From positions 1,950,001-1,982,000 of the forward strand of contig NC_003272.1 in NCBI RefSeq assembly GCF_000009705.1: a DNA stretch of 32,000 bases, written 5' to 3'. Source of the stretch: Nostoc sp. PCC 7120 = FACHB-418. GTDB lineage: Bacteria > Cyanobacteriota > Cyanobacteriia > Cyanobacteriales > Nostocaceae. Made by a program: the position numbers and the translations under genes. The notes beneath the pieces were generated by a model. That model worked only from the letters and a program-made list of their open reading frames with translations. It had not been told where the DNA came from and did no database searches. Positions 1 to 27,238 of this stretch are shown here, piece by piece; position 1 is the first letter of the stretch, and every line of letters starts with the position of its first letter.

Positions 1-674
1 CACTCTGGATATTTTCTTTGCAACAAATAAGCGTATTTATTTAAAATTTCATTAGCTAATGAGTAGTCAGATTGACCGACATTGCCATAAAAAGAAACAA
101 AAGAAGAAAATAAAGCAATAAACTTTAATTGTGCGATATCGACACAATTTATTAAACTGTGTAAACCTTCTATTTTTACATTATAAACAGTTTGAAAATC
201 CTGTTCTGTTTTATGCTCAATTAACTTGTCTGCCAGATTTCCTGCCCCATGAATAATACCTGTAATTCTTCCCAAGCGTGCGACGACAGGAGCTAATGCA
301 GATTTTAAAGCAGAGGTATCTGTCACATCAATACTTAAATATTCTGCTTCACCGCCTCCTTGTTTAATATCAGCTAGGGTTTGATAAATTTCCCGACTTT
401 GGCATATTTTTTTATAAAGATTCTGCACTTTTATGGGCGTTGGTTTTTCTTGCTGCTCTATTAAATGTTGCATAATTCGTTTTTTTAACTCCGACTCATC
501 AACACAACCAATGCTCCATTCCGGTTCTGTTGCTAAAATTGCAGAACGACCCAACAGAATAAATTTGCACTGATATTTTCGAGCCAAATAAATAATACAT
601 TCCGATGTGATTCCTCTGCCACCACCACTGACAACAACGACAGATGATGAATTTAGTTTAGTATGAGTATTCAT
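1..674 (-). CDS. Ketoreductase (SDR) catalytic subunit, PKS/PUFA-synthase type; partial, 3' end lies beyond the left window edge
   Basis: Not in the supplied ORF track because it runs off the edge. Minus-strand ATG at 674-672. An in-frame stop 10 codons upstream (707-705) means the frame opens at 704. My translation is MNTHTKLNSSSVVVVSGGGRGITSECIIYLARKYQCKFILLGRS...IHGAGNLADK...FSSFVSFYGNVGQSDYSLANE. It contains a Rossmann NADPH motif (SGGGRGIT) and the PKS-KR catalytic Tyr/Asn region (GQxxYxxAN). Confidence 0.8.
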   Translation of the reverse strand, partial: MNTHTKLNSSSVVVVSGGGRGITSECIIYLARKYQCKFILLGRSAILATEPEWSIGCVDESELKKRIMQHLIEQQEKPTPIKVQNLYKKICQSREIYQTLADIKQGGGEAEYLSIDVTDTSALKSALAPVVARLGRITGIIHGAGNLADKLIEHKTEQDFQTVYNVKIEGLHSLINCVDIAQLKFIALFSSFVSFYGNVGQSDYSLANEILNKYAYLLQRKYPE

Positions 675-937
675 GATGAGAATTAAGTAATTGCCAGTTT
701 TTATTTATCGACTACAACTGTTAAATGAAACGAGTAATAATATCATGTTCGTCCAAATTCAAATAATATCTGTGGCGCTTGGTAGTTGGTAATGGGTAAT
801 AGTGAAAAATACCTGTTAGCTATTACCCCACATCAAACCAAATTATATGTAATTAGCCGAACTTGATATAATCTATTGCTAATGGACAAAATTTAACTGG
901 AGTTTAGTTGAGATTATTTTCCTAAACTCCTGACAAT

Positions 938-1709: not shown

Positions 1710-4700
1710 CTATTTTTTTTCTGCCACCATGATTTGTCCTGCCAAATATTGGACAATTTGTGCCAGGGTACGCTTTTCCGCCAGTTCTTCGGGGCTAAGT
1801 TTGGGTAACTGAGGAAAAGATTCATGTAGAGTTCCCATAATTTCTACACGCTTGATGGAGTCCACGCCTAAATCCGCTTCTAAATCCATCTCTAATTCCA
1901 ACATTTCTGTAGGATAACCAGTTTTATCACTGACAACCTCCATTAATGCTCGGCTAATGTAACTTTCACTAGCCGCAGGAGAAGCAGTTTCAGTGACAAC
2001 TAATGTGGGTTGAGGAGTAGGGGCAGAATAACGAGGCTCTAAATAGTTGGCAATATGGGAGATATGAACGGGTTCAGCTACAGGTGCAGGAGTTACCTTG
2101 GGAGATTCCACTACAGGTGCAACAGGGGTCTTGGGAAGTTCTACCACAGAAGCGACGGGTGTCTGGGGAAGTTCCACCACTGGTGCTGGGACAACAACTG
2201 TTTGCTCCGCAATAGCAGAGGTTGAACCTTGAGGAATAAGAACTTCCTGTTGTTGCAGTAATTGTAGAAATGCTTGAAAACTCTGGGATTGAGTCTTCAC
2301 GTATTGTTCGTGAACCTGTAGCATTTCTTTTTGATGTTGATAAAACTGTTGGAAAAGATAGGCGACAGTATTATGAGTAGAGTTATTCATGGTATTTGTT
2401 TCGTCCTTAGAGATAATAAGTTGGTAATCAGATTGATGGTAAATTTCTCCTAGAGATACCGACTCTTCCATCACAGAGACGGGGGTAATGGCAATCTCAT
2501 CATTTGATGAAGCCACTAAAGGTTGAGCAGGGGAATCTGAAACAACAGTTGCTGCATCAGAAGCAACCTGATCAAGAGGGGTGGAAGCTAGCTGCACTAC
2601 AGGCTCAGGTTTGAAAGCAAATTCAAAGGCAGCTTTTGTTTTGTCACTGATGTAGTTGGTGGCATTGAGCTTAATAGATAATCCTTTAGATTTGCTTTTT
2701 TGAGCAGGCAATTTTCGGGGAGAAGCATCAAGATCCTCCAGGGACAATCCCATTACTCGTAGTTGGATGACTCCTTGACGCAGTTGGACATCACTGTCTT
2801 TTTGGCGACTGGGGTTGAGGGCAATGGCTATATGGGGGCGATCGCCTAATGTCTGCTTAACTAAGTTGGTGAGAATTTGTCGGGGGCCAATTTCAACAAA
2901 GCAATATCCTCCTTGGGCGTAAAGATTTTCGATTTCCTGTGCAAACTGAACGGCATTTAAAAGATGGGCTTCCAACAGTTGCCTGATGGCAGTTGCCTCC
3001 GTCGGATAGGCGTTACCCGTCATGTTTGCATAGACAGGAATTTGAGGAGTATTAAAGGTCACCCGATTGAGCGCCTCTGCAAAGGGTTGACTTGCATGGC
3101 GAACAAAGGGGGTGTGAAAAGCAGCAGAAACAGTTAAAGGAGTAACAGTGTAGCCCTGTTTGCTTAATACTTTCTCTAGGGCGGCAATTTCGGGTTTAGA
3201 ACCAGACAGTACTACTTGTTCTGGAGCATTATAATTAGCAATCTGCACCTTAGTCATACCGGCGATCAGTTGCTTAATTTTTGCCACATCACCACTGACG
3301 GCCAACATCGTACCGCGATCGCAATCATGAGACCCTTGGGGAATAGTCATGGCTTGCCCCCTGGCTTTGATCAGGTAACAATAATCCTCATCACTAAACA
3401 CCCCAGCCGCCCAAAGTGCAGTTAATTCCCCAAAGCTATGACCAGCCACAAAATCGGGCTTAAATCCTACTTTCTGCAAGATTTTATACAATCCCAGGCT
3501 CAAGGCTCCAATGGCAGGTTGAGCGTTTTCTGTGCGCTGTAATTGTTGGGACTGTTGCTTGATTGTTTCTGGGCTAAAGGCAGGAATTGGAAAGACTACA
3601 TCAGACAAAGCTGGCAAGTTATCCTGAGCCATCAACTGATCCAGAGCTTGATAAGCTTGTTGTATCTCTGGGAAGTTCAAGCTAATTTCTCGCCCCATGT
3701 TCAGATATTGCGACCCTTGACCGGGGAACAAAGCTACAACTTTACCCTTGAGAGATAAACCAGTTTGGCGGTAGTAAATCCCTTGGGGATGTTCCCAGGC
3801 AAAAGCCTGGGGCTGTATTTGCAGTTGTTTAATCGCTGCTTTTAGTAATTTTTGGGCTTCTTCTAGAGAGGTAGCCACAAAGCCCACACGGGCAGATGTT
3901 TCGGGGATGAGGGCTGTTTTGCTGTGATTTTGCAGTTGATTATATTGTTCGCCGCCGTTGTCAGATTGCAGTTGCTCAAGAGTCGCTTGACACTTTTGAG
4001 ATAATTGTTGTGGCGTATCAGCCCACAATAAAATAGATTGGGCTGTGGAATGGATGCGATCGCCTCCTTGGGGAAGTGTCGGGGTATATTCTTCCAAAAC
4101 CACATGATAGTCAGTGCCGCCAAATCCAAAAGAACTGACCCCCGCCCGTCTAGGAATGTCGCCATTTTGTATCCAGGGACGAGTTTCTGTATTGATATAA
4201 AAGGGAGACTCTTCTATTTTGAATTTCGGATTAGGTTGGGTGACATTAATGGTCGGTGGCAGGATTTTATGGTGTAAGGCTAGGGTCGCTTTGATTAAAC
4301 TAGCAGCGCCAGCAGCAGCTTTGGTGTGACCGATTTGAGATTTAACACTACCAAGAGCGATTTGTTGTTTTCCTGCCTGATTTTCCGTCAAAACTTGATT
4401 GAGGGCGGTAAATTCACAGAAGTCACCAGCTGGCGTACCTGTACCATGAGCTTCCATTAATCCTAAAGTCGCAGGAGAAAAGCCTGCATCTTCATAGGCT
4501 CGCCGTAAAGCTCGCACTTGTCCCTCAACACGGGGCGCATAGATACTTTTATAGCGACCATCACTGGCAGTGCCAATACCTTTTATTACTGCATAGATGC
4601 GATCGCCATCCCGTTCTGCATCTGCCAACCGCTTGATAACTAACATTCCTAATCCTTCTCCCACCATCATGCCGTCGGATGTAGCATCAAAGGGATTAAG

Positions 4701-5501
4701 ATAGTCTTTTTTAGAAAAAGCTGGGGTTTTACTGAAACACATATAGTTGAGGATGGAGTTGTCTGTGTCAAAGCCCCCGGTCAACATCATGTCACAACGA
4801 CCTTCAATCAGTTCACTAATTGCCATTTTTAAAGCACTTAAAGAACTAGCACAAGCCGCATCAACAACACAGTTAGTTCCTCCCAAATCTAGACGATTGG
4901 TAATTCTTCCTGCGACCACATTAGGCAACATACCTGGGAAAGAATTTTCTGTCCACGGTACAAAAGCTGCCTGCATTTTTTCAATAATTTTTTCGGTCTG
5001 TTCTGCGGATAGACCACTATTTTTTAAAACTTTTTCCCAAACGGGATATTGTAAACGAGCAGTTAAGGGAGTAATACTTTTCCAAAGTCCACTAGCCCCT
5101 AAAATTACTCCTGTTGTTTCTCGATTAAATTCTTTTCCTTCACTATAACCAGCATCTTTCAATGCTTGTTTTGCCAATACCAACGCTAATAAATTTGCTG
5201 AATCCAAAGCTTCAAGAGTATCCGGTGGCAATCCAAATTCTAAGGGATCAAAATCGATTTCTGGGAGAAATCCCCCTGCTCTGGCGTAAGTTTTATCAGG
5301 CGTACTGGGGTCTGGATCATAATAATCTTTAAGGCTCCAAGCTGTTTCTGGAACTTCAGAAATACCGTTGATTCTAGCTAGTATATTGTCCCAATATTGT
5401 TGTAAATTCTCTGCTTTGGCAAACAAGGCTGACATACCAATAATGGCAATAGGTGTTTGTTGTAAAGCGGAATTTTTCAGGGTCTTTTGTTGTGTATCCA
5501 T
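1710..5501 (-). CDS. HglE/PfaA-like polyketide synthase, KS-AT-(Pro-rich repeat linker)-ACP
   Basis: 1263 aa. KS motifs: DAACASS, EAHGTGTPAGD, GHTKAAAG. AT motifs: GHSFGELTALWAAG and SAAFHTPF. The single ACP has LGVDSIKRVEI, typical of PUFA-synthase/heterocyst-glycolipid-synthase carrier domains. The N-terminus (TPIAIIGMSALFAKAENLQQYWDNIL) is PfaA/HglE-like rather than modular-PKS-like. Confidence 0.9.
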   Translation of the reverse strand: MDTQQKTLKNSALQQTPIAIIGMSALFAKAENLQQYWDNILARINGISEVPETAWSLKDYYDPDPSTPDKTYARAGGFLPEIDFDPLEFGLPPDTLEALDSANLLALVLAKQALKDAGYSEGKEFNRETTGVILGASGLWKSITPLTARLQYPVWEKVLKNSGLSAEQTEKIIEKMQAAFVPWTENSFPGMLPNVVAGRITNRLDLGGTNCVVDAACASSLSALKMAISELIEGRCDMMLTGGFDTDNSILNYMCFSKTPAFSKKDYLNPFDATSDGMMVGEGLGMLVIKRLADAERDGDRIYAVIKGIGTASDGRYKSIYAPRVEGQVRALRRAYEDAGFSPATLGLMEAHGTGTPAGDFCEFTALNQVLTENQAGKQQIALGSVKSQIGHTKAAAGAASLIKATLALHHKILPPTINVTQPNPKFKIEESPFYINTETRPWIQNGDIPRRAGVSSFGFGGTDYHVVLEEYTPTLPQGGDRIHSTAQSILLWADTPQQLSQKCQATLEQLQSDNGGEQYNQLQNHSKTALIPETSARVGFVATSLEEAQKLLKAAIKQLQIQPQAFAWEHPQGIYYRQTGLSLKGKVVALFPGQGSQYLNMGREISLNFPEIQQAYQALDQLMAQDNLPALSDVVFPIPAFSPETIKQQSQQLQRTENAQPAIGALSLGLYKILQKVGFKPDFVAGHSFGELTALWAAGVFSDEDYCYLIKARGQAMTIPQGSHDCDRGTMLAVSGDVAKIKQLIAGMTKVQIANYNAPEQVVLSGSKPEIAALEKVLSKQGYTVTPLTVSAAFHTPFVRHASQPFAEALNRVTFNTPQIPVYANMTGNAYPTEATAIRQLLEAHLLNAVQFAQEIENLYAQGGYCFVEIGPRQILTNLVKQTLGDRPHIAIALNPSRQKDSDVQLRQGVIQLRVMGLSLEDLDASPRKLPAQKSKSKGLSIKLNATNYISDKTKAAFEFAFKPEPVVQLASTPLDQVASDAATVVSDSPAQPLVASSNDEIAITPVSVMEESVSLGEIYHQSDYQLIISKDETNTMNNSTHNTVAYLFQQFYQHQKEMLQVHEQYVKTQSQSFQAFLQLLQQQEVLIPQGSTSAIAEQTVVVPAPVVELPQTPVASVVELPKTPVAPVVESPKVTPAPVAEPVHISHIANYLEPRYSAPTPQPTLVVTETASPAASESYISRALMEVVSDKTGYPTEMLELEMDLEADLGVDSIKRVEIMGTLHESFPQLPKLSPEELAEKRTLAQIVQYLAGQIMVAEKK
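1713..1720 (-). repeat. A8 homopolymer (T8 on + strand) immediately 5' of the stop codon of the KS-AT-ACP gene
   Basis: Read directly. The minus strand is ...atg gtg gca gaa aaa aaa tag. The downstream ORF frame reads tgg tgg cag aaa aaa aat agc through the same bases, so the two frames are offset by one nucleotide. Confidence 0.9.
2082..2180 (-). repeat. Three tandem 33-nt (11-aa) Pro-rich repeats in the linker preceding the ACP
   Basis: The translation reads VVELPQTPVAS / VVELPKTPVAP / VVESPKVTPAP. The DNA repeat is visible at 2082-2180 (gtggtggaacttccccagac...). Confidence 0.85.
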
Positions 5502-6110: not shown

Positions 6111-9074
6111 CTAGCGTAGAGGTAGGAACGTAGGAGCGTCAGTAGTGCTTTGGATAGAGACAGGAGTCAAAAGATCCTCAAGCAATAGGAGATATTGTTT
6201 TCCTAAGGATTGAATTGTTGTAGCCAGATGAAAATTACGAGAATATTCAATTGTGATCTCTAAATGACCATCAACTATCAAAAAGAAAAATTCAATGAGT
6301 GTGGTACGTTTTTGATCGGGGAGTGACAAACGACAGTCTCGGACAGTTTGTATAAACTCAAACAGGTTAGACGGAGGAACAGAACGATTCCCTAAATAAT
6401 TAACCCGTATAGGAGTTAGATTGCTGTCAGGGTAGAGGTATTCAGGTAAGCGATCGCCAATCCAATCATAGGTTACACCATTCATGGGTAAACTTTGAAA
6501 GCGATCGCTAATCTCTTGAATAATTTCTTGCCAAATCGCAGATGAACCCAAGGTTATACCTACAGGGAAATTAATTGCATAATTCCCCATACTTTCCATG
6601 AAAGTACTTCCTTGTCCTAAATCTCTGCCGTGACTCCGATGACTAATTACCACCCCTGGGCGATGACTCCAATTAGCCATTAAACGATATAACGGCGCGA
6701 GTAGGATCAAGTAGACATTAGAACCATAATAAGATTTTCCTTGATTCAATAAAAGTTCTGTCTGTTGTTGACTAAGGCGAAAACATTCTTTTTCCGCCGA
6801 GGCTTCTATATTGACCCCTTTCACATGGTCGATAGGAATCTCAAATCCGCTTTTAGCATCAGGGAATTGAGATTGCCAATATTTGAGATGATGCTCAAAG
6901 GTTCCTTTGTTATCCTCATTCACTAATAATTGAACAAAATGTTCATAGGATTCGGATTTAGCCTGTGGAAATGTGGGAGCAACACCCAATAAAAGTTGAT
7001 GATAAGCACTCCAAAGTTCTTTAAATAAAATTGTCGCGCTCAACATATCAGTAATCATATGGTGAGCAATCATCGTAATATCGTAACAATTAGAACTCAC
7101 CTTTACGACGATCGCGGCCGTCATCGGCCAACTGTCAATCTGAATTTTTTTGGCTACTGCTTCCATGTATTGCTCAATTTTCAGATTCCGTTCTTCTTGA
7201 CTTACCTGACTACCATCCCAATATTCAGCAACAAAGGATTGTGTTTGATTGAGAATATGTTGTTGCCATTGTCCCTGATTCTGTACAAAAATCGTGCGGA
7301 AAGCGGCATGACGATGAACAAGGTGATTAACCGCTTGATTGAAGATATCTACATTGAGGGATTGATGATAGAGAAAACGGGTATAACCCAACCACTGATA
7401 AGGAGGTTCAAAATATTTGACTAACCAACGTTGAGCTGGGCCTAGAGGTAATAAAGGTAGTAAAGAAGGAGAGGAATCAGGGGAATCAGAGGTTAATTGA
7501 GTCACTAATGCTTTGCGGTCTAATTTCCCATTATGATTTTTGGGTAAACTATCCAACCAGAGAAATCTTTGGGGAATCATGTAATGAGGAAGCTTCTGTT
7601 CTAGATATTCCTTGAGGAAACGATTTTTGATTTTATTTCCCGATATACAAGCAACTAATCGCTTTTGCCCTTCCCCATAATCAACGGCCAGAGCTGCGGC
7701 TTCACGGACATCGGGATGAGTGGTTAACACACTTTCGATTTCTCCCAATTCAATGCGGAAACCGCGAATTTTCACTTGATGATCTATGCGTCCATGATAC
7801 TCAATGGTTCCATCTGGCAATTCTTTGACCAAATCTCCTGTCCGATAAATATAATCACCAGGAATATCAGTAAAGGGGTTAGGACAAAAAGCCTGAGCAG
7901 TTTTCTCTGGATCTTTGAGATAGCCTAATGCCAATTGGACTCCACCAAGCCACAGTTCTCCCATATTTCCAGGTTGTACAGGCTGCATCCCCCCGTCCAG
8001 AACTTTTACATAAACATTATCGATAGCTTTACCAATGGGAATTTGCGTCGTCAGCCGTTCATCAGGACGTTCCGTAATCAAGTGACAAGTAACGTCAATG
8101 GAAGCTTCTGTAGGGCCATAAAGATTGGCTAGTCCGGTTTTGAGTCCATGACGGTCAATCCACCTCTGAATAAAGGACATGGGTAATGCTTCCCCACTAA
8201 ACATCAACCAACGTAATTGGGGAAAACTCCAAGTTTCATTTTCTAAAGCACTAATAAACTCCCCAAACAGGGAAGGAACAAAGTGCATGACATTAATTTG
8301 AGTTTCTTGAATCCATCGAGCGAATTCCCAAGGATTGAGAACTACTTCCCGTTGCACAGGGCAAATAGTCGCGCCTGACATTAATGTCCAGAAAATTTCC
8401 CAAACCGAGATATCAAAACAAAAAGAGGTTCTTTGCGCTACGCGATCGCCTGGTTGTAATGAAAAAGTATTCTGCATCCATGTCAGACGATTCATGTAAC
8501 CTCGATGATTCAGCATTACCCCTTTGGGACGACCTGTGGAGCCAGAGGTGTAGAGAATCACCATTAAATCGTCGGGACTGTTACAAAGTTCTAAAGCATC
8601 ATCACTTAAACTTTGCCAGGTTTCAGCAGTGATTTGAGTTAATGATTGAATTTCTCCTAAAGGTTCACCCTCATCTAAAAACATCACCGTTTGTAAAGGT
8701 AACGCTTCCTGAACACAAGCCACTAATTGTTGACTAACTTGATGTTCTGTAAGTAGAGTCTGGATAGTGGCGTGTTCTAGGATGTAACGCAGTCTGTCAG
8801 TGGGATAACCAGGATCGAGGGGGATATAACTCCCGCCAGCTTTGAGAATACCTAAAATACCAATCATCATTCTGGCTCCCCGTTCAGCCATAATCCCGAC
8901 TCTGGTATTGGGGGCTACTCCTTGAGTGCGTAAATAAGTAGCCACTTGATTCGAGAGACGATCTAACTGTTGATAAGTCAGAGGATTGGTTTCATCAAGA
9001 ACAGCGATCGCATCAGGGGTTAATTGCGCTTGCTGAATAATCTGATAATAGGGTATTTCTGAAGTTAAGGTCAT
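6111..9074 (-). CDS. NRPS adenylation-condensation didomain protein (A-C, no carrier domain)
   Basis: 987 aa. A-domain core motifs: LTYQQLD, LKAGGSYIPLDP, YTSGSTGRPKGV, FDISVWE, NLYGPTE, GELWLGGVQLALGYL, YRTGDL, GRIDHQVKIRGFRIELGEIE, NGKLDRK. About 25 residues after A10 the C1-like motif GPAQRWL begins. The C-domain His motif is HHMITDM (7047-7064). No LGxDS carrier motif occurs anywhere in the protein. Confidence 0.9.
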   Translation of the reverse strand: MTLTSEIPYYQIIQQAQLTPDAIAVLDETNPLTYQQLDRLSNQVATYLRTQGVAPNTRVGIMAERGARMMIGILGILKAGGSYIPLDPGYPTDRLRYILEHATIQTLLTEHQVSQQLVACVQEALPLQTVMFLDEGEPLGEIQSLTQITAETWQSLSDDALELCNSPDDLMVILYTSGSTGRPKGVMLNHRGYMNRLTWMQNTFSLQPGDRVAQRTSFCFDISVWEIFWTLMSGATICPVQREVVLNPWEFARWIQETQINVMHFVPSLFGEFISALENETWSFPQLRWLMFSGEALPMSFIQRWIDRHGLKTGLANLYGPTEASIDVTCHLITERPDERLTTQIPIGKAIDNVYVKVLDGGMQPVQPGNMGELWLGGVQLALGYLKDPEKTAQAFCPNPFTDIPGDYIYRTGDLVKELPDGTIEYHGRIDHQVKIRGFRIELGEIESVLTTHPDVREAAALAVDYGEGQKRLVACISGNKIKNRFLKEYLEQKLPHYMIPQRFLWLDSLPKNHNGKLDRKALVTQLTSDSPDSSPSLLPLLPLGPAQRWLVKYFEPPYQWLGYTRFLYHQSLNVDIFNQAVNHLVHRHAAFRTIFVQNQGQWQQHILNQTQSFVAEYWDGSQVSQEERNLKIEQYMEAVAKKIQIDSWPMTAAIVVKVSSNCYDITMIAHHMITDMLSATILFKELWSAYHQLLLGVAPTFPQAKSESYEHFVQLLVNEDNKGTFEHHLKYWQSQFPDAKSGFEIPIDHVKGVNIEASAEKECFRLSQQQTELLLNQGKSYYGSNVYLILLAPLYRLMANWSHRPGVVISHRSHGRDLGQGSTFMESMGNYAINFPVGITLGSSAIWQEIIQEISDRFQSLPMNGVTYDWIGDRLPEYLYPDSNLTPIRVNYLGNRSVPPSNLFEFIQTVRDCRLSLPDQKRTTLIEFFFLIVDGHLEITIEYSRNFHLATTIQSLGKQYLLLLEDLLTPVSIQSTTDAPTFLPLR

Positions 9075-9214
9075 ATTTAAAAATATCCTTGCTACTATAG
9101 CGTTTACTGGTCGGCTGGAATATAAATTTATCAGCGTTTATCGGTGTTTATATGCGTTTAATTATTGTTTTTGCACCTCATTAAGGTAATACCAATTGGA
9201 AAAAATAAACCATC

Positions 9215-9243
9215 TGTAGAGACGCGATGAATCGTGTCTTCAC
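9215..9243. repeat. Nostoc-type dispersed repeat (tgtagagacgcgatgaatcgtgtcttcac)
   Basis: Imperfect hairpin agacgcga/tcgtgtct. I recognise this sequence class as a common small intergenic repeat in Nostocales. Copy number cannot be verified here. Confidence 0.5.
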
Positions 9244-9269
9244 TCAATAATGTATTGCTCAAAACCAAC

Positions 9270-9313
9270 GAAACCGGGTTTACGGTAATTAAGAATAGAT
9301 AAAACCCGGTTTC
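9270..9313 (-). other. Perfect 12-bp stem hairpin 6 nt downstream of the hybrid PKS-NRPS stop codon
   Basis: gaaaccgggttt (9270-9281) and aaacccggtttc (9302-9313) are exact reverse complements separated by a 20-nt loop. On the minus strand the hairpin is followed by gttggttttgag. Confidence 0.6.
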
Positions 9314-9319
9314 TGGTTC

Positions 9320-12300
9320 CTACGCGCTGATGGCTAGGGATTCAGCACTCAAAACAACCACCATTTCCTGTAAAGTGCGGCAATTCAGGAGGGCTTGACG
9401 ATAATTTTTGCCATACACGCTTTCTAAACGAGTTACCAAACGAATTAGCTCTAGAGAATCGAGTCCTAAATCCGCTTCTAAATCATCACTCATTTCTGAT
9501 TCTGCGATCGCCCAGTGGCAAATTTCGGAAGTAACTTGGCGTAAGTTTTTCCCAATATCTTTATTGATAAAGATAGGAGAGACCAACGCTGAGGAAACTT
9601 GTTCTTCAATTGGTAATGTAGCTAATTCTTCAATGTGTGCTAGATAGGATTTCATCAAACTATCAATCACCTTCACATCAAAGGTGTTGCCATCGTAGCT
9701 AGCAAACAAGTGCAGACGACTATCAAAAATTTCTTGTAAAATATCAATCGTTCCGGAAGCATTCATTCCTCCTGCTTGATACTCAGTCACAGATAAAGAC
9801 CCATAATTAGGATGAATGTGGGTTTGACCTGTATAAGGAAGATACAAGTTAGATTTTAAAGCTCCTTGGATTAAAGAAAGGCTGTGGTCTGGAATCCTGC
9901 CATTTTCTAAAACAAAACTATCCCGGAAAATAACTCCCATTTGTCTGGTTTGCGCCCGGTCTAAACCACTACCAATGTGTTGTTGAACCGTTTGCTGAAT
10001 TTCGGTGAGAAATGTTTGCCAATCTTGTTGTGCTTGGGGTGGGGTAAAACTCAGGGCTAAATTTTGAGCAAAACTACTAATTACGCCTGACGCATCCACT
10101 CCCGGATACACCCGACCACTGGTAGGGATTTGTATGCCAATTTTTTCTGAGGTGGTATCCAGTTTGGCCACAGTTTGAATAAATGCCCCTAAGAGGAGGG
10201 TATTCATAGGTACTCGCCATTCACGGGTTTTGGTGATTAACTTGGCAGTGGTTTCCGCAGACAGGATATATTTTTGATTATCAAATAAAGGAGTTTGCTG
10301 ACGAATCTTTTGCTGGGGATTCCACAGGTAAGCAGTATGACGTTGAGAGTTGTTGTATGCTGCTAAAGCTCGGTCTTCCTCAACATCTTGCCAAGCGTTC
10401 ATTGCTCGCACCTGCGCTTGATAATCAGCGACTGATACAGCCGGGGGAAGGTCAGGGGTATCTTGATCAATAAGAGCGCGATAGATTTCCAGAAATTCTC
10501 GGATAATTACATGATTACTCAAACCATCAGCAATCAAATGTTCATTTCCCAAGAACAGTTGATAGACGGAATCAGATAGTTGTAACACTGAAAATCCATG
10601 TAGTGGCCATTGGGTTAATGACCAGCGATAATTTAACCAATAGTTGACTTCTTGAGCGATCGCTTGTGTTTGTTCCTCAGAAGCAAGATGTCTGATATCC
10701 TTGAGGGGAATAGCCGGAGGGGTGGGATTTTTCAACACTTGCAATTGATAGTCTGCAAAGCTTGTTGCCCCTTGGGGGATGTGGAACCGCGCCCTTAACA
10801 TGGGATGTCTATCTATCAATGCTTGCCAACTTTGTTGAGCAATCTCCAGGTTAAAGTCACCTTCAATTTGTACCTTGGTAAACAAACTATTGGAATTGAG
10901 ACTCCAGTAACTTACTAATAGAGGTAATTGACTATGGAGAATGTCTACAACATCACTTGTCTGATCTATTGCGGGAATATCAGCAGATGGGACTACATCA
11001 ACTGCTGTGGTTGCTGGTAAATCAACAGTTTGCCAAGGTTCTAGAACCTTTAACAGTTCCCCTAAATTTGATATTTGCATTAAATCCCGCAGAGAAAAGA
11101 CCTGATGGAAACTTTCCCTTTGTCCTGGGGGAATGAATTTGATAATCCCATTCATTAATTGGGTCATCATAATCGAGTCTAAGCCCAAACCCCCCTCTAA
11201 AGTGGCATCCAGACTGAGTTGTTGAGGATTCATCCCGGTAATCTTCGCCACTAAGGAGAGAATCTGGCTTTCTAAGGTTTCTGTGGCTGCAACAATTGTT
11301 GATGTTTCCGGGGAAATGGCAGCAACAGGAATAACTTCCGGTTGAGTAGATTCTGCTTCGGCTAACCAATACCGTTGTCTTTGGAAAGGATAGGTAGGTA
11401 TAGTCAGACGACGACGAATATAATCTTGCTCAAACCCAGACCAGTCAAGCCTTACCCCATGAACTGATAAGGTGGCAACACTCTGTAATAAAGATTGCCA
11501 ATTGTTTTGTTCTCGATGCAGAGATGGTAGCCAGAGGATTTGGGGATCGGATAAAGTTTGTTTTCCCAATCTGGTTAAAACAGGATGGGGGCCGATTTCG
11601 ATCAACACATCGTAACCTTGTTGGGCTAATGTCTCCATCGCGGGTGCAAACTGCACACAATCACGTATTTGCTGACACCAATATTCTGCATCAATACTGT
11701 GGGTAATTTCTGCCCCTGTCACGCTAGAAATCCAATCAATGCCAGGAGTTTGGTAATTAATCTTCGCTGCTACTTGTTTAAATTCCCCTAACATCGGTTC
11801 CATCATGGGAGAATGGAAGGCGTGGGAGACTTGCAGAGGACGGACATCAATTCCCTGGGCGGTTAAATCAGCTTGCACCAAAGCTATGGCTGCTTTCACC
11901 CCAGAAATCACCACATTTTCCGGGCTATTAATAGTAGCAATCGTCACTTCGTTAGCGTAAGGAGCGATCGCCCTCGCCACGGTTTCCACCGGAGCAAATA
12001 CAGCCGCCATTGTCCCTGTTTGGGGTAAGGCCTGCATTAGTTGTCCCCGTTGGGCGATTAATTCTATGCCTTCTTGGAGAGTATATACACCAGCGATACA
12101 AGCCGCTACATATTCGCCTACACTATGACCCAAGACTCCCTGGGGTTGAATGCCCCATGATTGCCATAGTTTACACAAAGCATATTCAATAGCAAATAAG
12201 GCAGTTTGGGTATAAGCAGTTTGGTTGATTAGGGGGTTGGCTGTGGGAGTTTGGGGATATAAAACACTTAATAGGGATTCTTTTAAGTAAGGTTGTAATA

Positions 12301-14083
12301 GGCGATCGCATTCGTCTAAAGCTTGACGGAATGTAGGTTGGGTTTCATAGAGTTGTCTGCCCATACCCACATATTGAGATCCTTGTCCGGTGAATAAAAA
12401 GGCTATTTTCGGTTGTCGTCCTTTTTCTACTTCTTGACTGAAAACGTTCAAGGATGGTTGTTTTTGATTAAAAGCGGCTAAATTTTGCCTTGCTTGTGCG
12501 GTTGATTGGGCGATAATTGCCAAGCGATGATTAAAGCTTCCCCTTCCGGTATTGGCACTAAATGCCAAATCGGCAAAATTCGTTTCGGGATGGTTGCGTA
12601 AAAGATGTTCCCAATCAGTAGCTAAGGTGTGTAAAGCAGCTTCACTTTTTGCCGATAACATTAAAACATGAAGCGGGCGATCGACTTCCGCCGGAGTAAC
12701 CGTTAACTGGGGCGGTTCTTCAATAATGATATGAGCATTAGTTCCACTTAAGCCAAATGAACTAATTCCTGCCATTCTCGGTTGTTCTGTAGGTTGCCAA
12801 GGAATAATGCTGGTAGGAATCTTTAAAGACTTGGCCGAAGCAGCTAAATCGGGGTTGAGTTCCTGAAAATTAAGATGGGGAGGAATTTCTTGATGTTGCA
12901 AGGATAAGATCACTTTCAACAAACTTGCCATACCGGCAGCAATTTCTAAGTGACCAATATTGGTTTTCACCGAACCGAGAATCAGGGGATGATTTGGGGA
13001 ACGTCCTTTACCAAAAACCCCATCAATAGCCCGCACTTCAATCGGATCGCCCAAAGCAGTTCCCGTCCCGTGGGCTTCCAGATAGCTAATTTGTGCCGGT
13101 GTCACCTTGGCATTAGCCAAAGCTTGACGAATCACTGCTTGTTGCGCCGTCCCATTGGGAACTGTCAACCCACTACTAGCACCATCTTGATTAACTGCGG
13201 AGCCACGAATTACAGCTAAAATATGATCTCCGTCAGCAACGGCACTACTGAGGCGTTTGAGAACTACCATCCCACAACCTTCACCCCGCACATAGCCATT
13301 AGCATCTCGGTCAAAGGTTTTACAACGACCATCAGGAGAAAGGGCGCGGGTTTTAGATAAATACAGGGTAACTTCGGGGGACAGCATTAAACTCACGCCC
13401 CCAGCTAAAGCCAAGTTACACTCACCATTGCGTAAACTCTGACAAGCTAAATGAATGGTGACTAAAGAGGTAGAACAAGCTGTATCAATGGCTAAACTTG
13501 GCCCTTGCAATCCCAAAAGATAGGATAAACGTCCCGCCGCAAAACAAAAAGCATTGCCCGATCCCGTATAGGCATCAATGGGAATGTGATGTTTAATTTG
13601 CCGTTTAGCATAATCATCTATACCAATACCAACAAACACGCCTGTTTGCGTACCTGTAAGCTTTTGTGGGGCAATTCCCGCATTTTCCAAGGCTTCCCAA
13701 CTTACTTCTAACAATAGCCGTTGTTGGGGGTCAAGGGCGATCGCTTCTCTAGGGGTAATGCCAAAAAACTGCGGATCAAACTGATCAACGTTGTTAATAA
13801 AGCCCCCATAACGGGCATACATTTTATTGGGGACATCAGGATCATCATCGTAATAGGCATCAATATCCCAGCGTTGGGGTGGTACTGTGGTAATGCCATC
13901 TTTTCCTTGACGTAATAACTCCCAAAATTTTTCTGGGTTGTTGGCATCCCCAGGAAAACGACAACCCATACCCACAATGGCAATTGGTTCGTTTTGTGTC
14001 CGTTCTAAGCTTTCAATCTTTGTACGGGCTTCTTTAAGGGCAATAATAGCTTTTTGTAAAGGTGTTAAGTCTTGAGTTTGCAT
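9320..14083 (-). CDS. Hybrid PKS-NRPS: docking helix-KS-AT-ACP-C-PCP
   Basis: 1587 aa. KS motifs: DTACSTS, EAHGTGTALGDPIE, NIGHLEIAAG. AT motifs: GHSVGEYVAACIAG with HAFHS, which suggests malonyl-CoA. The ACP has GLGLDSIMM (Ser codon 11174-11176). There are no KR, DH or ER domains. The condensation domain has a variant His motif, EHLIADG (10523-10543). The C-terminal carrier has ADLGLDSLELI (Ser codon 9455-9457). The N-terminal 35 aa (DLTPLQKAIIALKEARTKIESLERT) look like a docking helix. An AGGAGA SD lies 8 nt before the ATG, and only 14 nt separate this gene from the upstream one. Confidence 0.9.
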   Translation of the reverse strand: MQTQDLTPLQKAIIALKEARTKIESLERTQNEPIAIVGMGCRFPGDANNPEKFWELLRQGKDGITTVPPQRWDIDAYYDDDPDVPNKMYARYGGFINNVDQFDPQFFGITPREAIALDPQQRLLLEVSWEALENAGIAPQKLTGTQTGVFVGIGIDDYAKRQIKHHIPIDAYTGSGNAFCFAAGRLSYLLGLQGPSLAIDTACSTSLVTIHLACQSLRNGECNLALAGGVSLMLSPEVTLYLSKTRALSPDGRCKTFDRDANGYVRGEGCGMVVLKRLSSAVADGDHILAVIRGSAVNQDGASSGLTVPNGTAQQAVIRQALANAKVTPAQISYLEAHGTGTALGDPIEVRAIDGVFGKGRSPNHPLILGSVKTNIGHLEIAAGMASLLKVILSLQHQEIPPHLNFQELNPDLAASAKSLKIPTSIIPWQPTEQPRMAGISSFGLSGTNAHIIIEEPPQLTVTPAEVDRPLHVLMLSAKSEAALHTLATDWEHLLRNHPETNFADLAFSANTGRGSFNHRLAIIAQSTAQARQNLAAFNQKQPSLNVFSQEVEKGRQPKIAFLFTGQGSQYVGMGRQLYETQPTFRQALDECDRLLQPYLKESLLSVLYPQTPTANPLINQTAYTQTALFAIEYALCKLWQSWGIQPQGVLGHSVGEYVAACIAGVYTLQEGIELIAQRGQLMQALPQTGTMAAVFAPVETVARAIAPYANEVTIATINSPENVVISGVKAAIALVQADLTAQGIDVRPLQVSHAFHSPMMEPMLGEFKQVAAKINYQTPGIDWISSVTGAEITHSIDAEYWCQQIRDCVQFAPAMETLAQQGYDVLIEIGPHPVLTRLGKQTLSDPQILWLPSLHREQNNWQSLLQSVATLSVHGVRLDWSGFEQDYIRRRLTIPTYPFQRQRYWLAEAESTQPEVIPVAAISPETSTIVAATETLESQILSLVAKITGMNPQQLSLDATLEGGLGLDSIMMTQLMNGIIKFIPPGQRESFHQVFSLRDLMQISNLGELLKVLEPWQTVDLPATTAVDVVPSADIPAIDQTSDVVDILHSQLPLLVSYWSLNSNSLFTKVQIEGDFNLEIAQQSWQALIDRHPMLRARFHIPQGATSFADYQLQVLKNPTPPAIPLKDIRHLASEEQTQAIAQEVNYWLNYRWSLTQWPLHGFSVLQLSDSVYQLFLGNEHLIADGLSNHVIIREFLEIYRALIDQDTPDLPPAVSVADYQAQVRAMNAWQDVEEDRALAAYNNSQRHTAYLWNPQQKIRQQTPLFDNQKYILSAETTAKLITKTREWRVPMNTLLLGAFIQTVAKLDTTSEKIGIQIPTSGRVYPGVDASGVISSFAQNLALSFTPPQAQQDWQTFLTEIQQTVQQHIGSGLDRAQTRQMGVIFRDSFVLENGRIPDHSLSLIQGALKSNLYLPYTGQTHIHPNYGSLSVTEYQAGGMNASGTIDILQEIFDSRLHLFASYDGNTFDVKVIDSLMKSYLAHIEELATLPIEEQVSSALVSPIFINKDIGKNLRQVTSEICHWAIAESEMSDDLEADLGLDSLELIRLVTRLESVYGKNYRQALLNCRTLQEMVVVLSAESLAISA

Positions 14084-19134: not shown

Positions 19135-19392
19135 TCAAAGATATAATTCCCCCAAGCGTTTAGCCAATTGAGCAATAGTTGGGTAGTTGAATATTAAAAC
19201 GGGATTTAACTCTTTACCCAACCATTTTTCTAATCGACCTAGTAAAATCAAAGCTTTACTGGAATTTAGATCATAATTATCAAATGATTCTTCCATGTCA
19301 ATATCATCTGGATCAACATCGAGTTGTTGAGCAAACTGATCGATTAACCAACTTTGAATATCTTCTACAGAGCAGGGTTGAATGGTTTTCAT
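19135..19392 (-). CDS. Stand-alone acyl carrier protein
   Basis: 85 aa. The layout ...FDNYDLNSSKALILLGRLEKWLGKELNPVLIFNYPTIAQLAKRL is PKS-type ACP-like, as seen in carriers that partner with acyl-AMP ligases. The usual DS is replaced by NS at the phosphopantetheine site. Confidence 0.75.
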   Translation of the reverse strand: MKTIQPCSVEDIQSWLIDQFAQQLDVDPDDIDMEESFDNYDLNSSKALILLGRLEKWLGKELNPVLIFNYPTIAQLAKRLGELYL

Positions 19393-19529: not shown

Positions 19530-20363
19530 TTAGTTCATTGTTTGCAAAGATTGATATTTTTGTCTCCAACTTCTGGGTGACAATTTATGATACTGGCTAA
19601 AACGACGAGAAAAGTAATAAGCATCTGTAAAGCCAACAGCCATAGCAATCTCTGTTACTGACTTGTCGCTGTTAATTAATAATGAACGAGCTTCTAGCAT
19701 TTTTCTTTCGAGAATCCAATCAATAATCGTTAATTGGGTTCGACGCTTAACTAAATTAGTTAAATATGCAGGAGAATAACCGACTGCTTGGGCAACATCG
19801 TTAAGACTAATGGGTAAGTGATAGTTTTGCTCAATAAATTCAAAAATTGGTCGAATTTGTACACAATTAGGATAAAAGTCAGCACTTGACAAAGACTTAT
19901 TAGATGGGTGAACAGGCTGATTTTTTTCATCTAAATATAAACCTTGATCAGAGGAAATATCTGGATTCTTTGTCGAGAATGTATGAGCTAGAATACAGCC
20001 CAAAACTTCACTTCCATGTTCTAGAGATTTAATAGTGACTTCTATGGATTGATATTCTTGAGAAGAACAAACTTTCTTAAAAGTTAAGGAAGTTTGTTGT
20101 TTAAGTAATTGCCAGTAGTATGACCAACTTGAAGGAAGAAAATCCATCTCTACTTCATCAATGGTCATGTTCAACAATTTTTGTCTAGAATGCCCTAATA
20201 AAGAACAAGCAGCATCATTAATGTAGTGAAAGTGACCTTGATAATCTAAACAAAATATTGCTTCCTTCACTTGATTGATCAAATGCTGAATTAAGGAAAC
20301 TGGTTCAGATAAGCTTGATTGAGAGTATGTGTTGGTAGAGGAAATATTTTGGTTGGAAAACAT
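19530..20363 (-). CDS. PAS-domain / AraC-family HTH transcriptional regulator
   Basis: 277 aa. The C-terminal ~100 aa (ISLNDVAQAVGYSPAYLTNLVKRRTQLTIIDWILERKMLEARSLL...VTEIAMAVGFTDAYYFSRRFSQYHKLSPRSWR) form a canonical double-HTH AraC/XylS domain. The N-terminal ~110 aa (IFCLDYQGHFHYINDAACSLLGHSRQKLLNMTIDEV...) are PAS-like. Confidence 0.85.
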   Translation of the reverse strand: MFSNQNISSTNTYSQSSLSEPVSLIQHLINQVKEAIFCLDYQGHFHYINDAACSLLGHSRQKLLNMTIDEVEMDFLPSSWSYYWQLLKQQTSLTFKKVCSSQEYQSIEVTIKSLEHGSEVLGCILAHTFSTKNPDISSDQGLYLDEKNQPVHPSNKSLSSADFYPNCVQIRPIFEFIEQNYHLPISLNDVAQAVGYSPAYLTNLVKRRTQLTIIDWILERKMLEARSLLINSDKSVTEIAMAVGFTDAYYFSRRFSQYHKLSPRSWRQKYQSLQTMN

Positions 20364-22328: not shown

Positions 22329-23108
22329 ATGCTGAAAAAAATAAATGCTACATTTTCAGGTTTACTGAGTATTATCACTGCTGCAACTGCGACTGTTACC
22401 ATATTGTCTTCATCAGTGAAAGCGGCAGACTTTAGACCCTATCGCTTTGTCTCAGGTCAGGAGAGTATTAGACTCGATGCTGATGCCTTGAATTCTCTAA
22501 AAGCTATTGGCTTAAATCTATCGGTTGTAGATAATGTAGTTCCTCCAGCAGAGGGTTTTGACTTCGGTTGGCCAGTGTTACCACCAGCAACTAATCCAGG
22601 CGATCGCGGAACAAGTTTTGAGTTCCTTTATGATGAAGAGACAGATACTTTTGTTCCCATCTCAGGAACCATTGAGTTTAACGGCAGTTTATTCTTTGAT
22701 TTTGACCCAACTAAATTTAGTGTAGCGTCGCCACTACAATTAGGCGAACTTTCAGTTTTTTTTAATGAAAACTATGAATTTTTCGCGATCGATACAGTGA
22801 CAACTAATCTACCGATCATGACTGTTAATACCTTCGAGGCCCCAACAATCGATTTAAAAAATCGCACTTGGTTTCTTGAACCCATTGAATTGGTTTTCAC
22901 CACAGAATTTAGTAACTTTCTTATCAATGCAGCCATAACTCCAGAATCAGCCAATGAAGTGGCAAGTCTTATACCTGGTTTAAAAATAGGGGAAGCTAGA
23001 GGAGATCGGGGTTTTATTCCCTTAGATACTGCTTCTGTTCCTGAACCCAGCATCTTACTGGCGATGTTTGTAGTTACGGGAACAGTATTAGTAGCGAGAA
23101 AGAAATAA
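22329..23108 (+). CDS. Secreted PEP-CTERM-anchored protein, unknown function
   Basis: 259 aa. N-terminal signal peptide (…ILSSSVKA/AD). The C-terminus VPEPSILLAMFVVTGTVLVARKK (from 23037) shows the PEP motif, a TM helix and a basic tail. Confidence 0.8.
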   Translation: MLKKINATFSGLLSIITAATATVTILSSSVKAADFRPYRFVSGQESIRLDADALNSLKAIGLNLSVVDNVVPPAEGFDFGWPVLPPATNPGDRGTSFEFLYDEETDTFVPISGTIEFNGSLFFDFDPTKFSVASPLQLGELSVFFNENYEFFAIDTVTTNLPIMTVNTFEAPTIDLKNRTWFLEPIELVFTTEFSNFLINAAITPESANEVASLIPGLKIGEARGDRGFIPLDTASVPEPSILLAMFVVTGTVLVARKK

Positions 23109-23155
23109 CGAAGAATCGAAAAACCTAATCAATTGATAGGAGTGTATTAAAAATA

Positions 23156-24103
23156 ATGCGTACTTTTCTCATTGGCTTACTAGGATTAGCGAGTGCTACA
23201 GTTTTGACAATTCCTCAAGCAGCACAAGCTCAAACCTTTGATTTTGATCGACTGGAATTTATTGAATCTCGTCCACTTCCAGCTAATGGATCTCTTTTCT
23301 TTTTTGGAGATCAAAACCAGAATGAAGGATATGCAGCTTACTCTAATCTAGACCGGAATGCTCCAGATGCTGGACACGTCGGCTTTCGCAGTGATCTTAA
23401 TAATCGTTATTATGTAACTGGTCGGGAAAATAGCCCAGATCCTACGGGGGCGACGCGTTCTGCGACCCTTGAAAGCCTCGCAAATTTTCCGAACTTAATG
23501 AATTACTTGAATAATAATGGCATTCCATTAAGTGATATTGGTTACGGTTTTGGGCAGAAACCTGGCTTTTCTGTAACTCAATCCTTGAATTTAGGGGCAG
23601 ATGTTTTGGGACAAGATTGGTTTGGTCGTCCTGGTTCTCCAGTCGAAGAATCAATTTACCGCGCGCGTCCAGAAAGTTTTGAGCGTTATTTAACGTATCA
23701 AACCACTAAAATTATTAAGTTTGGATATTCAGATACCTTTTTTGCTTCAGCTGATGATAACCCAGATAGCGTCTTTGGTAATCCCAATATATTTTTTTCT
23801 AATCCAGTTTCCCCCTCCAAAGCACCTGGCTTAGAGGGATTGGGATCAGGAATTGCTGATGCTTTTTTGCAAGATGTAGTAGCAGGTGGTGGAAAAATTC
23901 AAGAGTTTTCTGAAGACATTCTTGATCCAGAGGATTTAGCGGTCTCAGTCAATGGAGGATTTGAAATTTATACATTTTCCTTTCCCATAGAAATCAGAAT
24001 TGTCCGAGAAGTCCCTGAATCGTCATCGATTTTAGGTTTAATGTTCTTGGCAGGAGGTGGCGTTGTTACCCAAATAAAACGACACAAAAGAAGTGTTCGA
24101 TAG
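23156..24103 (+). CDS. Secreted PEP-CTERM-like protein (VPES variant), paralog of 24360..25343
   Basis: 315 aa. Signal peptide (…IPQAAQA/QT). The C-terminus is VPESSSILGLMFLAGGGVVTQIKRHKRSVR. It shares blocks with the next protein: F(I/V)(E/K)(S/T)RPL, ATLxxxxxFxNxxxxLxxNxI, FGYSD, GxADAFLxDV, KIQxxSED, (E/Q)(I/L)RIV(R/D)(E/V)PE. Confidence 0.8.
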   Translation: MRTFLIGLLGLASATVLTIPQAAQAQTFDFDRLEFIESRPLPANGSLFFFGDQNQNEGYAAYSNLDRNAPDAGHVGFRSDLNNRYYVTGRENSPDPTGATRSATLESLANFPNLMNYLNNNGIPLSDIGYGFGQKPGFSVTQSLNLGADVLGQDWFGRPGSPVEESIYRARPESFERYLTYQTTKIIKFGYSDTFFASADDNPDSVFGNPNIFFSNPVSPSKAPGLEGLGSGIADAFLQDVVAGGGKIQEFSEDILDPEDLAVSVNGGFEIYTFSFPIEIRIVREVPESSSILGLMFLAGGGVVTQIKRHKRSVR

Positions 24104-24359
24104 AGGTTTTTCCTGAAAATTGACCAATATAACTTGATTTCATCAATTCCTCAGTAGCTTATAAAGAATCAGCGAATTTAGCTAAAGATTCTCCATTTCT
24201 CTGAGGAATTTCTGTTTTATAGTAAGTTTTAAGAATTATACGTAATTCCTTCTAGGTATACTGACAATTAAACTATTTGTCCAATAATCTCTTAGCCCGT
24301 TTGATTGTTAAAAATCAAGAACTAATTCCACATCATCATTTGGAGTCGAACAACTAACT

Positions 24360-26973: not shown

Positions 26974-26978
26974 CAATT

Positions 26979-27190
26979 CAAAATTCAAAATACCCTACGG
27001 GAAGGCTTCGCCAACAAAATTCAAAATTAAAGACAGTTGTGGTCGGTGATTTAAATCCCAATTTGATATTACGTGTAGACGTAGCGCAAAGTCTGTAGCT
27101 TGCTTCCCGCAGGGTGCGCCGACTTCCGGCAGCGTAGCGGTAGCGAGTCTGCGTTCGCTTTTAGCGTCTCGTAGAGAGCGTCACAGAACT
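26979..27190. repeat. Block of Nostoc-type dispersed repeats between the MFP and RND genes
   Basis: ccctacgggaaggcttcgccaac (26993-27015) is flanked by the 13-nt direct repeat caaaattcaaaat (26979-26991 and 27015-27027; the second copy overlaps the last base of the repeat word). A GC-rich, gtagcg-rich structured segment follows at 27075-27190 (cgtagcgcaaagtctgtagc...cagcgtagcggtagcgagtctgcg...agcgtctcgtagagagcgtc). Confidence 0.6.
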
Positions 27191-27238
27191 TTGTAAGAGA
27201 GGGGTTTTAAACCCTTGAATTTACTATAAAAATATCCT

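Follow-up and report, generated by a model that had tools for sequence, protein, structure and literature searches.

The hybrid biosynthetic locus analyzed here lies in a 32,000-nucleotide stretch of the genome of Nostoc sp. PCC 7120 = FACHB-418 (contig NC_003272.1, positions 1,950,001 to 1,982,000), the whole of which is referred to as the window and to which all nucleotide coordinates refer. The window has a G+C content of ∼40%, and the adenylation (A), condensation (C) and polyketide synthase (PKS) genes concerned are all on the minus strand, in one operon (Table 1). Two adjacent genes, separated by a gap of 245 bp, are the main subject. The first encodes a hybrid protein in which a PKS module is followed by a C domain and a peptidyl carrier protein (PCP), and the second encodes an A domain followed by a condensation-fold domain. 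This last domain has the ancestry of an epimerization (E) domain but lacks the canonical E catalytic pair and was therefore named E*. An earlier, sequence-only reading had described the two genes as a permuted nonribosomal peptide synthetase (NRPS) module ending in a second C domain.

Table 1. Features of the PKS-NRPS locus and adjoining genes, in order of transcription (window coordinates)
Feature	Position	Strand	Evidence
PAS + AraC-type regulator, operon head	19530..20363	-	NCBIfam
Stand-alone acyl carrier protein (ACP), 85 aa, directly upstream of first PKS	19135..19392	-	Pfam PP-binding, E 5e-15; position in list of open reading frames
PKS module 1, KS-AT-KR-ACP, 1570 aa	14098..18810	-	Pfam
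Hybrid protein, KS-AT-ACP-C-PCP, 1587 aa	14083-9320	-	Pfam
PKS module 2, KS-AT-ACP without KR, DH or ER	11048..14083	-	Pfam and motif coordinates
First condensation domain, aa ~1041-1505, His motif EHLIADG	9569..10963	-	Pfam Condensation, E 5e-28
PCP, aa ~1515-1587, LGLDSL at aa 1539 (nt 9446-9469), ends the protein	9323..9541	-	PP-binding stretch and motif
A-E* protein, 987 aa, A + condensation-fold domain	9074-6111	-	Pfam
Adenylation domain, aa 14-521	7512..9035	-	Pfam AMP-binding, E 6e-87, and AMP-binding_C
Linker, 23 residues, from A10 NGKLDRK to E1-like GPAQRWL	7443..7511	-	Motif coordinates
E* domain, aa 545-975, epimerization-type condensation fold	6150..7442	-	PDB, profile and fold searches
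Terminator-like hairpin, 11-bp stem + T run, ~50 nt past the A-E* stop codon	6038..6062	-	Consensus scan only
PfaA-like KS-AT-ACP, first part of split PfaA resembling polyunsaturated fatty acid (PUFA) synthase	1710..5501	-	Pfam
PfaA-derived small protein, about 240-295 aa	938..1825	-	NCBIfam TIGR02813 (PfaA) positions 1756-1982, E 2e-33
KR(-DH) part of split PfaA, start only; continues past window end	3..704	-	Pfam KR, E 3e-29

Pfam analysis of the hybrid protein located a ketosynthase (KS) at residues 32 to 406, an acyltransferase (AT) at 562 to 877, a PP-binding domain at 940 to 1012 and a Condensation domain at 1071 to 1501, with a second PP-binding stretch at the C terminus; no AMP-binding, ketoreductase (KR), dehydratase (DH) or enoylreductase (ER) domain was detected in this protein. 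This order confirmed that a C-PCP unit is fused to the PKS with no A domain in the same protein. The motifs of PKS module 2 included the active-site Cys in DTACSTS, GHSVGE and the malonyl-type HAFHS in the AT, and LGLDSI at residue 966 in the ACP. The carrier motif [LIVMF]Gx[DNH]S[LIVMF] occurred twice in the hybrid protein, in this ACP and as LGLDSL in the PCP, and there is exactly one PCP. A tandem pair of near-identical PCPs ends the hybrid protein in the closest relatives (Nostoc parmelioides and Calothrix, loci L004 and L001), and the window protein is 80 residues shorter than these. The single PCP could be due to recombinational loss of one repeat or to a collapse in the assembly.

The His motif of the first C domain, EHLIADG, occupies residues 1181 to 1187 (nucleotides 10523 to 10543), exactly where the sequence-only reading had placed it. 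That reading had called the motif noncanonical, and comparison with 76 relatives indicated ordinary variation instead: the second His and the Asp were invariant in all 76 sequences, and the first position varied (E in 38, H in 15 and N in 12). This invariance suggested that EHLIADG is normal for the family and compatible with activity. Matches of the domain in the PDB were to C and heterocyclization (Cy) domains and were weak. A Cy function was considered, both because of these matches and because E-x4-D resembles D-x4-D, and was rejected: the catalytic His does not vary in the family, and reading of the sequence revealed none of the other signature motifs of Cy domains. A PapA/WS-DGAT-like identity of either this domain or the second condensation-fold domain was also discarded, as the matches were marginal only (E of about 1e-3). 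The position of the first C domain between an ACP and a PCP and its invariant His and Asp are those of a peptide-bond-forming C domain, and its predicted role is to couple the beta-ketoacyl-ACP with the seryl-PCP.

The A-E* protein contained Pfam matches to AMP-binding (residues 14 to 386), AMP-binding_C (445 to 517) and Condensation (543 to 970). The score of the A domain against TIGR01733 exceeded the cutoff of that model, and all A core motifs were intact. In agreement with the earlier claim that this protein has no LGxDS-type carrier, no PP-binding match was found in its 987 residues even at an E value of ≤0.01, and the carrier motif given above was not present anywhere in it. The A10 motif (residues 515 to 521) and the E1-like motif (545 to 551) are separated by 23 residues, close to the 25 or so first estimated, and the corresponding spacing in related loci was mostly 16 to 56 residues, which is too short for a carrier of about 75 residues. 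A cryptic carrier between A and E* was rejected on the combination of these observations, namely the negative Pfam search, the missing Ser motif and the short linker. The direct fusion described by the sequence-only reading was thereby upheld, but the domain to which A is fused proved not to be an ordinary C domain, as described below.

Related loci were collected by an E* alignment scan limited to one genome per species, which yielded 80 loci, and the window's own domains were mapped onto the six-frame open reading frames (ORFs) of all loci, a mapping that covered 84 related loci. The permuted order recurred in more than 80 species of several phyla (cyanobacteria, clostridia, Paenibacillus, proteobacteria and myxobacteria). 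Cyanobacterial hosts were Nostoc, Microcystis, Crocosphaera, Calothrix, Scytonema, Moorena, Coleofasciculus, Chamaesiphon and Leptolyngbyaceae, and other hosts were Clostridium, Ruminiclostridium, Acetivibrio, Paenibacillus, Shouchella, Methylocaldum, Luteimonas, Cellvibrio, Gynuella and Anaeromyxobacter. Each of the 84 loci complete enough to judge had the order ACP(-ACP)-C-PCP-A-E*, in which the A domain follows the PCP and precedes E*. Three kinds of packaging were observed: the window type, with KS-AT-ACP-C-PCP and a separate A-E* protein; ACP-C-PCP-A-E* on a single protein; and ACP-ACP-C-PCP-A-E* extended by a short-chain dehydrogenase/reductase (SDR). PCP-A-E*-SDR versions were also found, and in most related loci C-PCP-A-E* was one polypeptide. 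The partner PKS was always (FAAL-ACP-)KS-AT-KR-ACP-KS-AT. PKS module 1, which in the window starts with its KS, is a conserved upstream partner of the permuted module.

Homologues of the 987-residue protein with 60 to 89% identity were present in many cyanobacteria, and at 45 to 58% identity the matches were proteins of about 1650 and about 1400 to 1540 residues that included PP-binding. The precomputed Pfam annotation of a Halotia protein listed Condensation, PP-binding, AMP-binding, AMP-binding_C and Condensation on one chain. A BLASTP comparison of the concatenated window proteins with this fused protein gave a single collinear match (51.8% identity over 1643 columns), which spanned the gene boundary of the window without a gap. 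The two genes of the window are thus the result of a gene fission in the PCP-A linker, and the collinearity is strong evidence that the upstream PCP is the client of the A domain. The earlier proposal that the A domain serves this PCP is supported both by this alignment and by the fusion of the domains in the same order in most relatives. The closest locus, that of Nostoc parmelioides, had 91% identity and the same gene order.

The C-terminal SDR of the third packaging was closest to FabG and to (3R)-hydroxyacyl-CoA dehydrogenase, and it may be the beta-ketoreductase that is lacking from the last PKS module. Two claims of the sequence-only reading are qualified by this domain. The last PKS module of the window does lack a KR, as had been reported, but a beta-keto donor would not be a feature of the whole family if the fused SDR is a ketoreductase; and a condensation-fold domain does come last in the window, but many relatives have the FabG-like SDR fused after it. 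Outside the cyanobacteria, loci in Firmicutes and proteobacteria (L049 to L083 and L084) had a compact four-gene set without Pfa genes. This set encodes ACP-ACP-C-PCP-A-E*-SDR, a PKS of ∼3100 residues (FAAL-ACP-KS-AT-KR-ACP-KS-AT), an MFS transporter and, in some of the loci, a discrete thioesterase (TE).

The ten-residue specificity code of the A domain in the window is DIWHMSLIDK, 8 of whose 10 residues are identical to those of the classical serine code, DVWHLSLIDK. The code was DIWH(I/V/M)SLIDK in about 80 loci, with a family consensus of DIWHISLIDK, and was exactly DVWHLSLIDK in locus L073. These codes predict that the A domain activates L-serine in essentially the whole family.

The nature of the domain that follows the A domain was examined by sequence, profile and fold comparisons. 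A canonical EGHGRE domain was absent from all 120 of the retrieved proteins, and profile searches against the PDB and fold searches were therefore used in place of a tree with E references. A phmmer search of the single E* sequence against all PDB chains detected the E domains PvdL E2 (5e-32), BacC (2e-27), TycB3 (4e-27), TycA (2e-25) and GrsA (1e-18), with the best genuine C domains at about 1e-9. A profile built from 15 family members scored 154 to 234 bits over the full length of every E domain in the PDB, and the best C domain, that of TycC, reached 91 bits. The AlphaFold2 model of E* had a pLDDT of 84 and a pTM of 0.83, and ranks 1 to 12 of a Foldseek search with this model were all E domains. 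The match to the E-domain-specific model TIGR01720 was weak (32 bits) and under its cutoff. These comparisons place the domain in the E lineage.

The motifs of E* differ from those of E domains at critical positions. The core motifs of E domains are PxQxW, HHxISDG, EGHGRE and FNYLG, and their counterparts in E* are GPAQRWL, HHMITDM (residues 671 to 677), SHRSHGRD (nucleotides 6621 to 6644) and VNYLGN (6387 to 6404). The His motif had been noted before; its extent is 7044 to 7064, as the start given in the sequence-only reading (7047) was one codon short. SHRSHGRD keeps the HGR of E4, and in the alignment with PvdL E2 the catalytic Glu of EGHGRE faces an Arg (Arg813). Among 75 E* homologues, the Ser, Arg, Gly and Arg of SHRxHGR were invariant, the His, His and Asp of HHxIxD were kept in 73 to 75 sequences, and the Gly was always Met, Leu or Ile. 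E* is thus not a canonical E domain, and it is not a C domain of the LCL, starter or PapA-like kind either.

The loss of the canonical Glu and the replacement of the Gly of HHxxxDG are what would be expected if E* were a catalytically dead scaffold that holds the module together, like C1 of VibF or the glycopeptide X domain. In VibF of vibriobactin biosynthesis (Cy-Cy-A-C1-PCP-C2), where C1 has been reported to be dispensable, an A domain also runs into a condensation-fold domain without an intervening carrier, but the carrier comes after that domain. A dead scaffold was judged extremely unlikely here, as the HH, D, S-H-R, HGR and NYLGN positions were invariant or nearly so, and this conservation persisted among sequences with as little as 29% identity. 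The near invariance of HH..D and SHRxHGR in 75 sequences indicated that E* is under selection.

A second alternative is that E* is a true condensation catalyst, which would pass the acyl-seryl chain to a separate nucleophile. This nucleophile could be the alcohol or amine of a Pfa-derived lipid, by analogy with zeamine-type pathways, or another chain, if the tandem PCPs are used for oligomerization. Pfa-like genes adjoin the module in the window, the closest relatives have twin PCPs, and chain release by terminal C domains is known from enacyloxin, rapamycin/FK506 and fungal NRPSs. However, E* has no downstream carrier in any packaging and low scores with C domains, in contrast to a peptide-bond-forming C domain; it is of the E type, and E domains are not known to have an open acceptor site. 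The window has a single PCP, and E* is conserved in many loci without Pfa genes. Most E* loci lack such genes, and the coupling of Pfa lipids by zeamine logic was rejected as a general role. On this evidence, a condensing role was considered very unlikely.

The predicted use of serine throughout the family raised a third alternative, in which E* modifies the serine side chain on the PCP, by alpha-deprotonation and loss of the beta-hydroxyl to give dehydroalanine or by closure of a beta-lactone or oxazoline, with release as a consequence or elsewhere. Condensation-fold domains that can dehydrate Ser or Thr are known (AmbE and the C5 domain of NocB in nocardicin biosynthesis), and E-type chemistry yields the alpha-carbanion that would be required. 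The modifying C domain of AmbE, however, scored 47 bits with the E* profile, compared to 154 to 234 bits for E domains, and nothing in the clusters points to the use of dehydroalanine; such a role appears distinctly unlikely.

The window was scanned for TE and reductase (R) domains, and the related loci were screened for discrete TE genes. No TE or R domain was detected in any of the scanned ORFs of the window, as the sequence-only reading had reported. Of the 83 related loci screened, 16 had a discrete TE homologue of the PF00975 type, and Clostridium pasteurianum also has a discrete TE; of the 50 loci with full 10-kb flanks, 11 had one within 10 kb and 39 did not. The 10 kb past E* in Nostoc parmelioides contained Pfa-like genes only, and housekeeping genes (cobS/tgt and hemN-like) directly followed A-E* in a Xenococcaceae locus and a Crocosphaera locus (L054 and L006). 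The neighbors in Calothrix were MFS, PfaD, PfaC-like and KR-DH genes. The most widely coconserved neighbor was an MFS transporter, found in 53 loci. The scarcity of TE genes near these loci implies that, in most organisms, release depends on something in the conserved core, where E* is the sole conserved candidate for this step. E* would thus be the best candidate for the chain-release catalyst, and off-loading by E* appears plausible and parsimonious.

The same observations bear on the possibility that E* is a working epimerase with another acid/base pair, which might include the invariant His beside the Arg in SHRxHGR. The line would then carry D-serine on the PCP, and release would be by a type II TE, by another hydrolase or spontaneous. 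The sequence and predicted fold of E* are closest to E domains, motifs like E1, E2 and E7 are kept, and a discrete TE is present in some relatives. Against this, the Glu that is essential in the E domains of GrsA and TycA is an invariant Arg in E*, a TE homologue was absent within 10 kb in 39 of the 50 fully flanked loci, and E* comes after the A domain, via the 23-residue linker, rather than directly downstream of the PCP that it would serve. Overall, we consider epimerization unlikely.

Taken together, the domain content of the window suggested that a lipid-primed line of two PKS modules ends in the permuted ACP-C-PCP-A-E* unit as its terminal NRPS module, specific for serine, and that E* off-loads the chain, a reading in which our confidence and our doubt are evenly balanced. 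In the pathway that we infer, with steps 1 to 5 read from the domain content and step 6 conjectural, a long acyl starter would reach the KS of module 1, probably from the adjacent Pfa-like synthase via the small ACP in the window and from a fused FAAL-ACP in most relatives. The KS-AT-KR-ACP module would add a C2 unit and leave a beta-hydroxyl, and the KS-AT-ACP module would add a second C2 unit and leave a beta-keto group. The A domain would activate L-serine and load it in trans onto the PCP at the C terminus of the hybrid protein, and the C domain between ACP and PCP would form an N-(5-hydroxy-3-oxoacyl)-seryl-S-PCP. In the sixth step, E* would act on the PCP-bound thioester and off-load the chain without a thioesterase. 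The most likely chemistry would be a base-catalyzed intramolecular cyclization, in which the general base of an E-type domain generates a carbanion or enolate. Dieckmann closure to a 3-acyl-5-hydroxymethyl tetramic acid would be the obvious option for the beta-keto form in the window, with lactonization as an alternative where an SDR has reduced the ketone.

Several points weigh against this proposal. Canonical E domains are not known to release chains. The equivalence of the Glu and the Arg comes from one printed alignment, with PvdL, and from knowledge of the motifs, and the ten specificity positions of the A domain were mapped by hand using the GrsA numbering. Many relatives have an SDR after E*, and Dieckmann closure would not be family-wide if this SDR reduces the beta-keto group. 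A hydrolase encoded more than 10 kb away, or spontaneous release, may act instead. A bolder form of the proposal is advanced tentatively and with more doubt than belief: that E* is an E domain turned TE-independent release catalyst, whose alpha-proton-abstracting His, together with the Arg in place of Glu, would enolize the N-(beta-ketoacyl)-seryl thioester and close a ring (a tetramate, gamma-lactam or lactone), within an ancient, circularly permuted C-PCP-A-E* module that would have spread among at least five phyla and would make exported serine lipids.

C-T modules that lack an A domain and are complemented in trans have been described for SyrE/SyrB1 of syringomycin and for ramoplanin and enduracidin (PMC8949500). 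As in these systems, a megasynthase of the window ends in a C-PCP unit whose A domain is on another protein. However, their helper is an A-T didomain, with a shuttle enzyme also needed for syringomycin, whereas the helper in the window is carrier-less; and in most relatives of the window the A domain is fused downstream of the PCP, which makes this a fixed permutation and not a missing domain. HMWP1/HMWP2 of yersiniabactin are a further case of a C-T module that lacks an A domain and is complemented in trans. Chain-releasing terminal condensation domains are found in fungal NRPSs (CT), in RapP/FkbP (C-A-T-C) and in enacyloxin biosynthesis (Bamb_5915). Like these, E* is a condensation fold that ends a line without a TE or R domain; unlike them, it is directly preceded by an A domain, and its matches to them were weak (45 bits for 6cgo and an E value of about 0.015 for TqaA). 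With canonical E domains (TycA, GrsA, TycB3, PvdL E2 and BacC), E* shares its best sequence, profile and fold matches, but it has the Arg for Glu, has lost the Gly after the Asp, follows an A domain and ends a TE-less line.

Two further candidates were set aside. In PDB entry 8xjz, chain C ("Peptide synthetase"), an A domain also leads directly into a C-like domain, but the similarity of this chain to E* was weak. Myxofacycline biosynthesis includes an NRPS module without an A domain, but with an aminotransferase and a TE (PMC9298251); these two enzymes mark it as a different family, and it was rejected as a characterized relative. Literature searches with the exact strings "C-PCP-A-C," "C-PCP-A-E" and "ACP-C-PCP-A" gave no match, and searches on tetramates, Clostridium and Paenibacillus found no relevant characterized relative.

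The locus as a whole matches clade II, an uncharacterized cyanobacterial group of PKS-NRPS-PUFA-synthase-like hybrid clusters (El Arnouki Belhaji et al., JACS Au 2026, PMC13291983). In this clade, a Rossmann-type protein interrupts pfaA, a single NRPS module accompanies two PKS modules, and tryptophan-halogenase genes are present in some strains. The likeness includes the gene content of the window, with pfaA in three pieces (5501 to 1710, 1825 to 938 and 704 to 3), and the host genera Microcystis, Nostoc, Scytonema and Trichormus/Anabaena; the Calothrix locus has a tryptophan-halogenase gene upstream, as in some clade II strains. The main text of that paper is silent on the C-PCP-then-A order, on the carrier-less A protein, on the E-type last domain and on the occurrence of the same module without pfa genes in other phyla.

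The PfaA-like KS-AT-ACP gene, which is separated from the A-E* gene by 609 bp and lies in the same gene order in loci L004 and L005, is probably the source of the lipid starter, and this acyl chain is probably carried by the stand-alone ACP. The small protein that follows matches the PfaA segment just before the KR, which identified it as a detached PfaA piece and not a recruited enzyme; it corresponds to the "Rossmann-fold hypothetical protein" by which, in the description of clade II (PMC13291983), pfaA is split, and its ORF overlaps the 3' end of the preceding gene by 116 nt. The L004 homologue of the next gene, which is cut by the window end, is KR plus PS-DH.

Other features of the window were also recorded. 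Just past the stop codon of the hybrid gene, a near-palindromic element occurs twice (positions 9270 to 9319), as AAACCGGGTTT and AAACCCGGTTT, the copies being ∼25 nt apart; these paired elements, inside the 245-bp gap, could be a hairpin or a regulatory site. In the regulator at the operon head, a PAS domain that resembles the PAS domain of the scytonemin sensor kinase is fused to an AraC-type DNA-binding domain, and AraC-type genes also adjoin the module in loci L047 (Leptolyngbyaceae) and L064 (Paenibacillus). On the plus strand, three PEP-CTERM proteins are followed by an HlyD-type adaptor and an RND pump (22329 to 25343 and 25441 to 30343). The three secreted PEP-CTERM proteins have no Pfam family. 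Two of them, of 315 and 327 residues, belong to a family that adjoins the permuted module in 28 cyanobacterial loci, and the families of the 259-residue PEP-CTERM protein and of the HlyD adaptor occur in 9 and 11 loci, respectively; these genes look like a conserved accessory or export set. Just past the RND pump, an 80-residue ORF on the minus strand (30447 to 30689) had no Pfam match and may be the C-terminal remnant of a transposase at an island edge.

The locus encodes a nonlinear hybrid NRPS whose architecture is well supported and whose chemistry we infer. The order C-A-T is taken for granted by tools for NRPS engineering and genome mining, which also interpret an E-type domain as the maker of a D-residue and a missing TE as the sign of an incomplete cluster. 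This conserved family puts the carrier before the A domain, ends in an E* domain without the catalytic Glu and breaks the TE assumption too, and the whole C-PCP-A-E* unit occurs as one protein or two. If E* does release the chain, it would bring a new chemistry of termination, packaged in a module for this step that is compact and portable. The product is apparently a hydroxy/oxo-acyl-serine lipid with a dedicated exporter, in hosts of ecological importance that include bloom-forming Microcystis, Nostoc, Crocosphaera, nitrogen-fixing Paenibacillus and cellulolytic clostridia.

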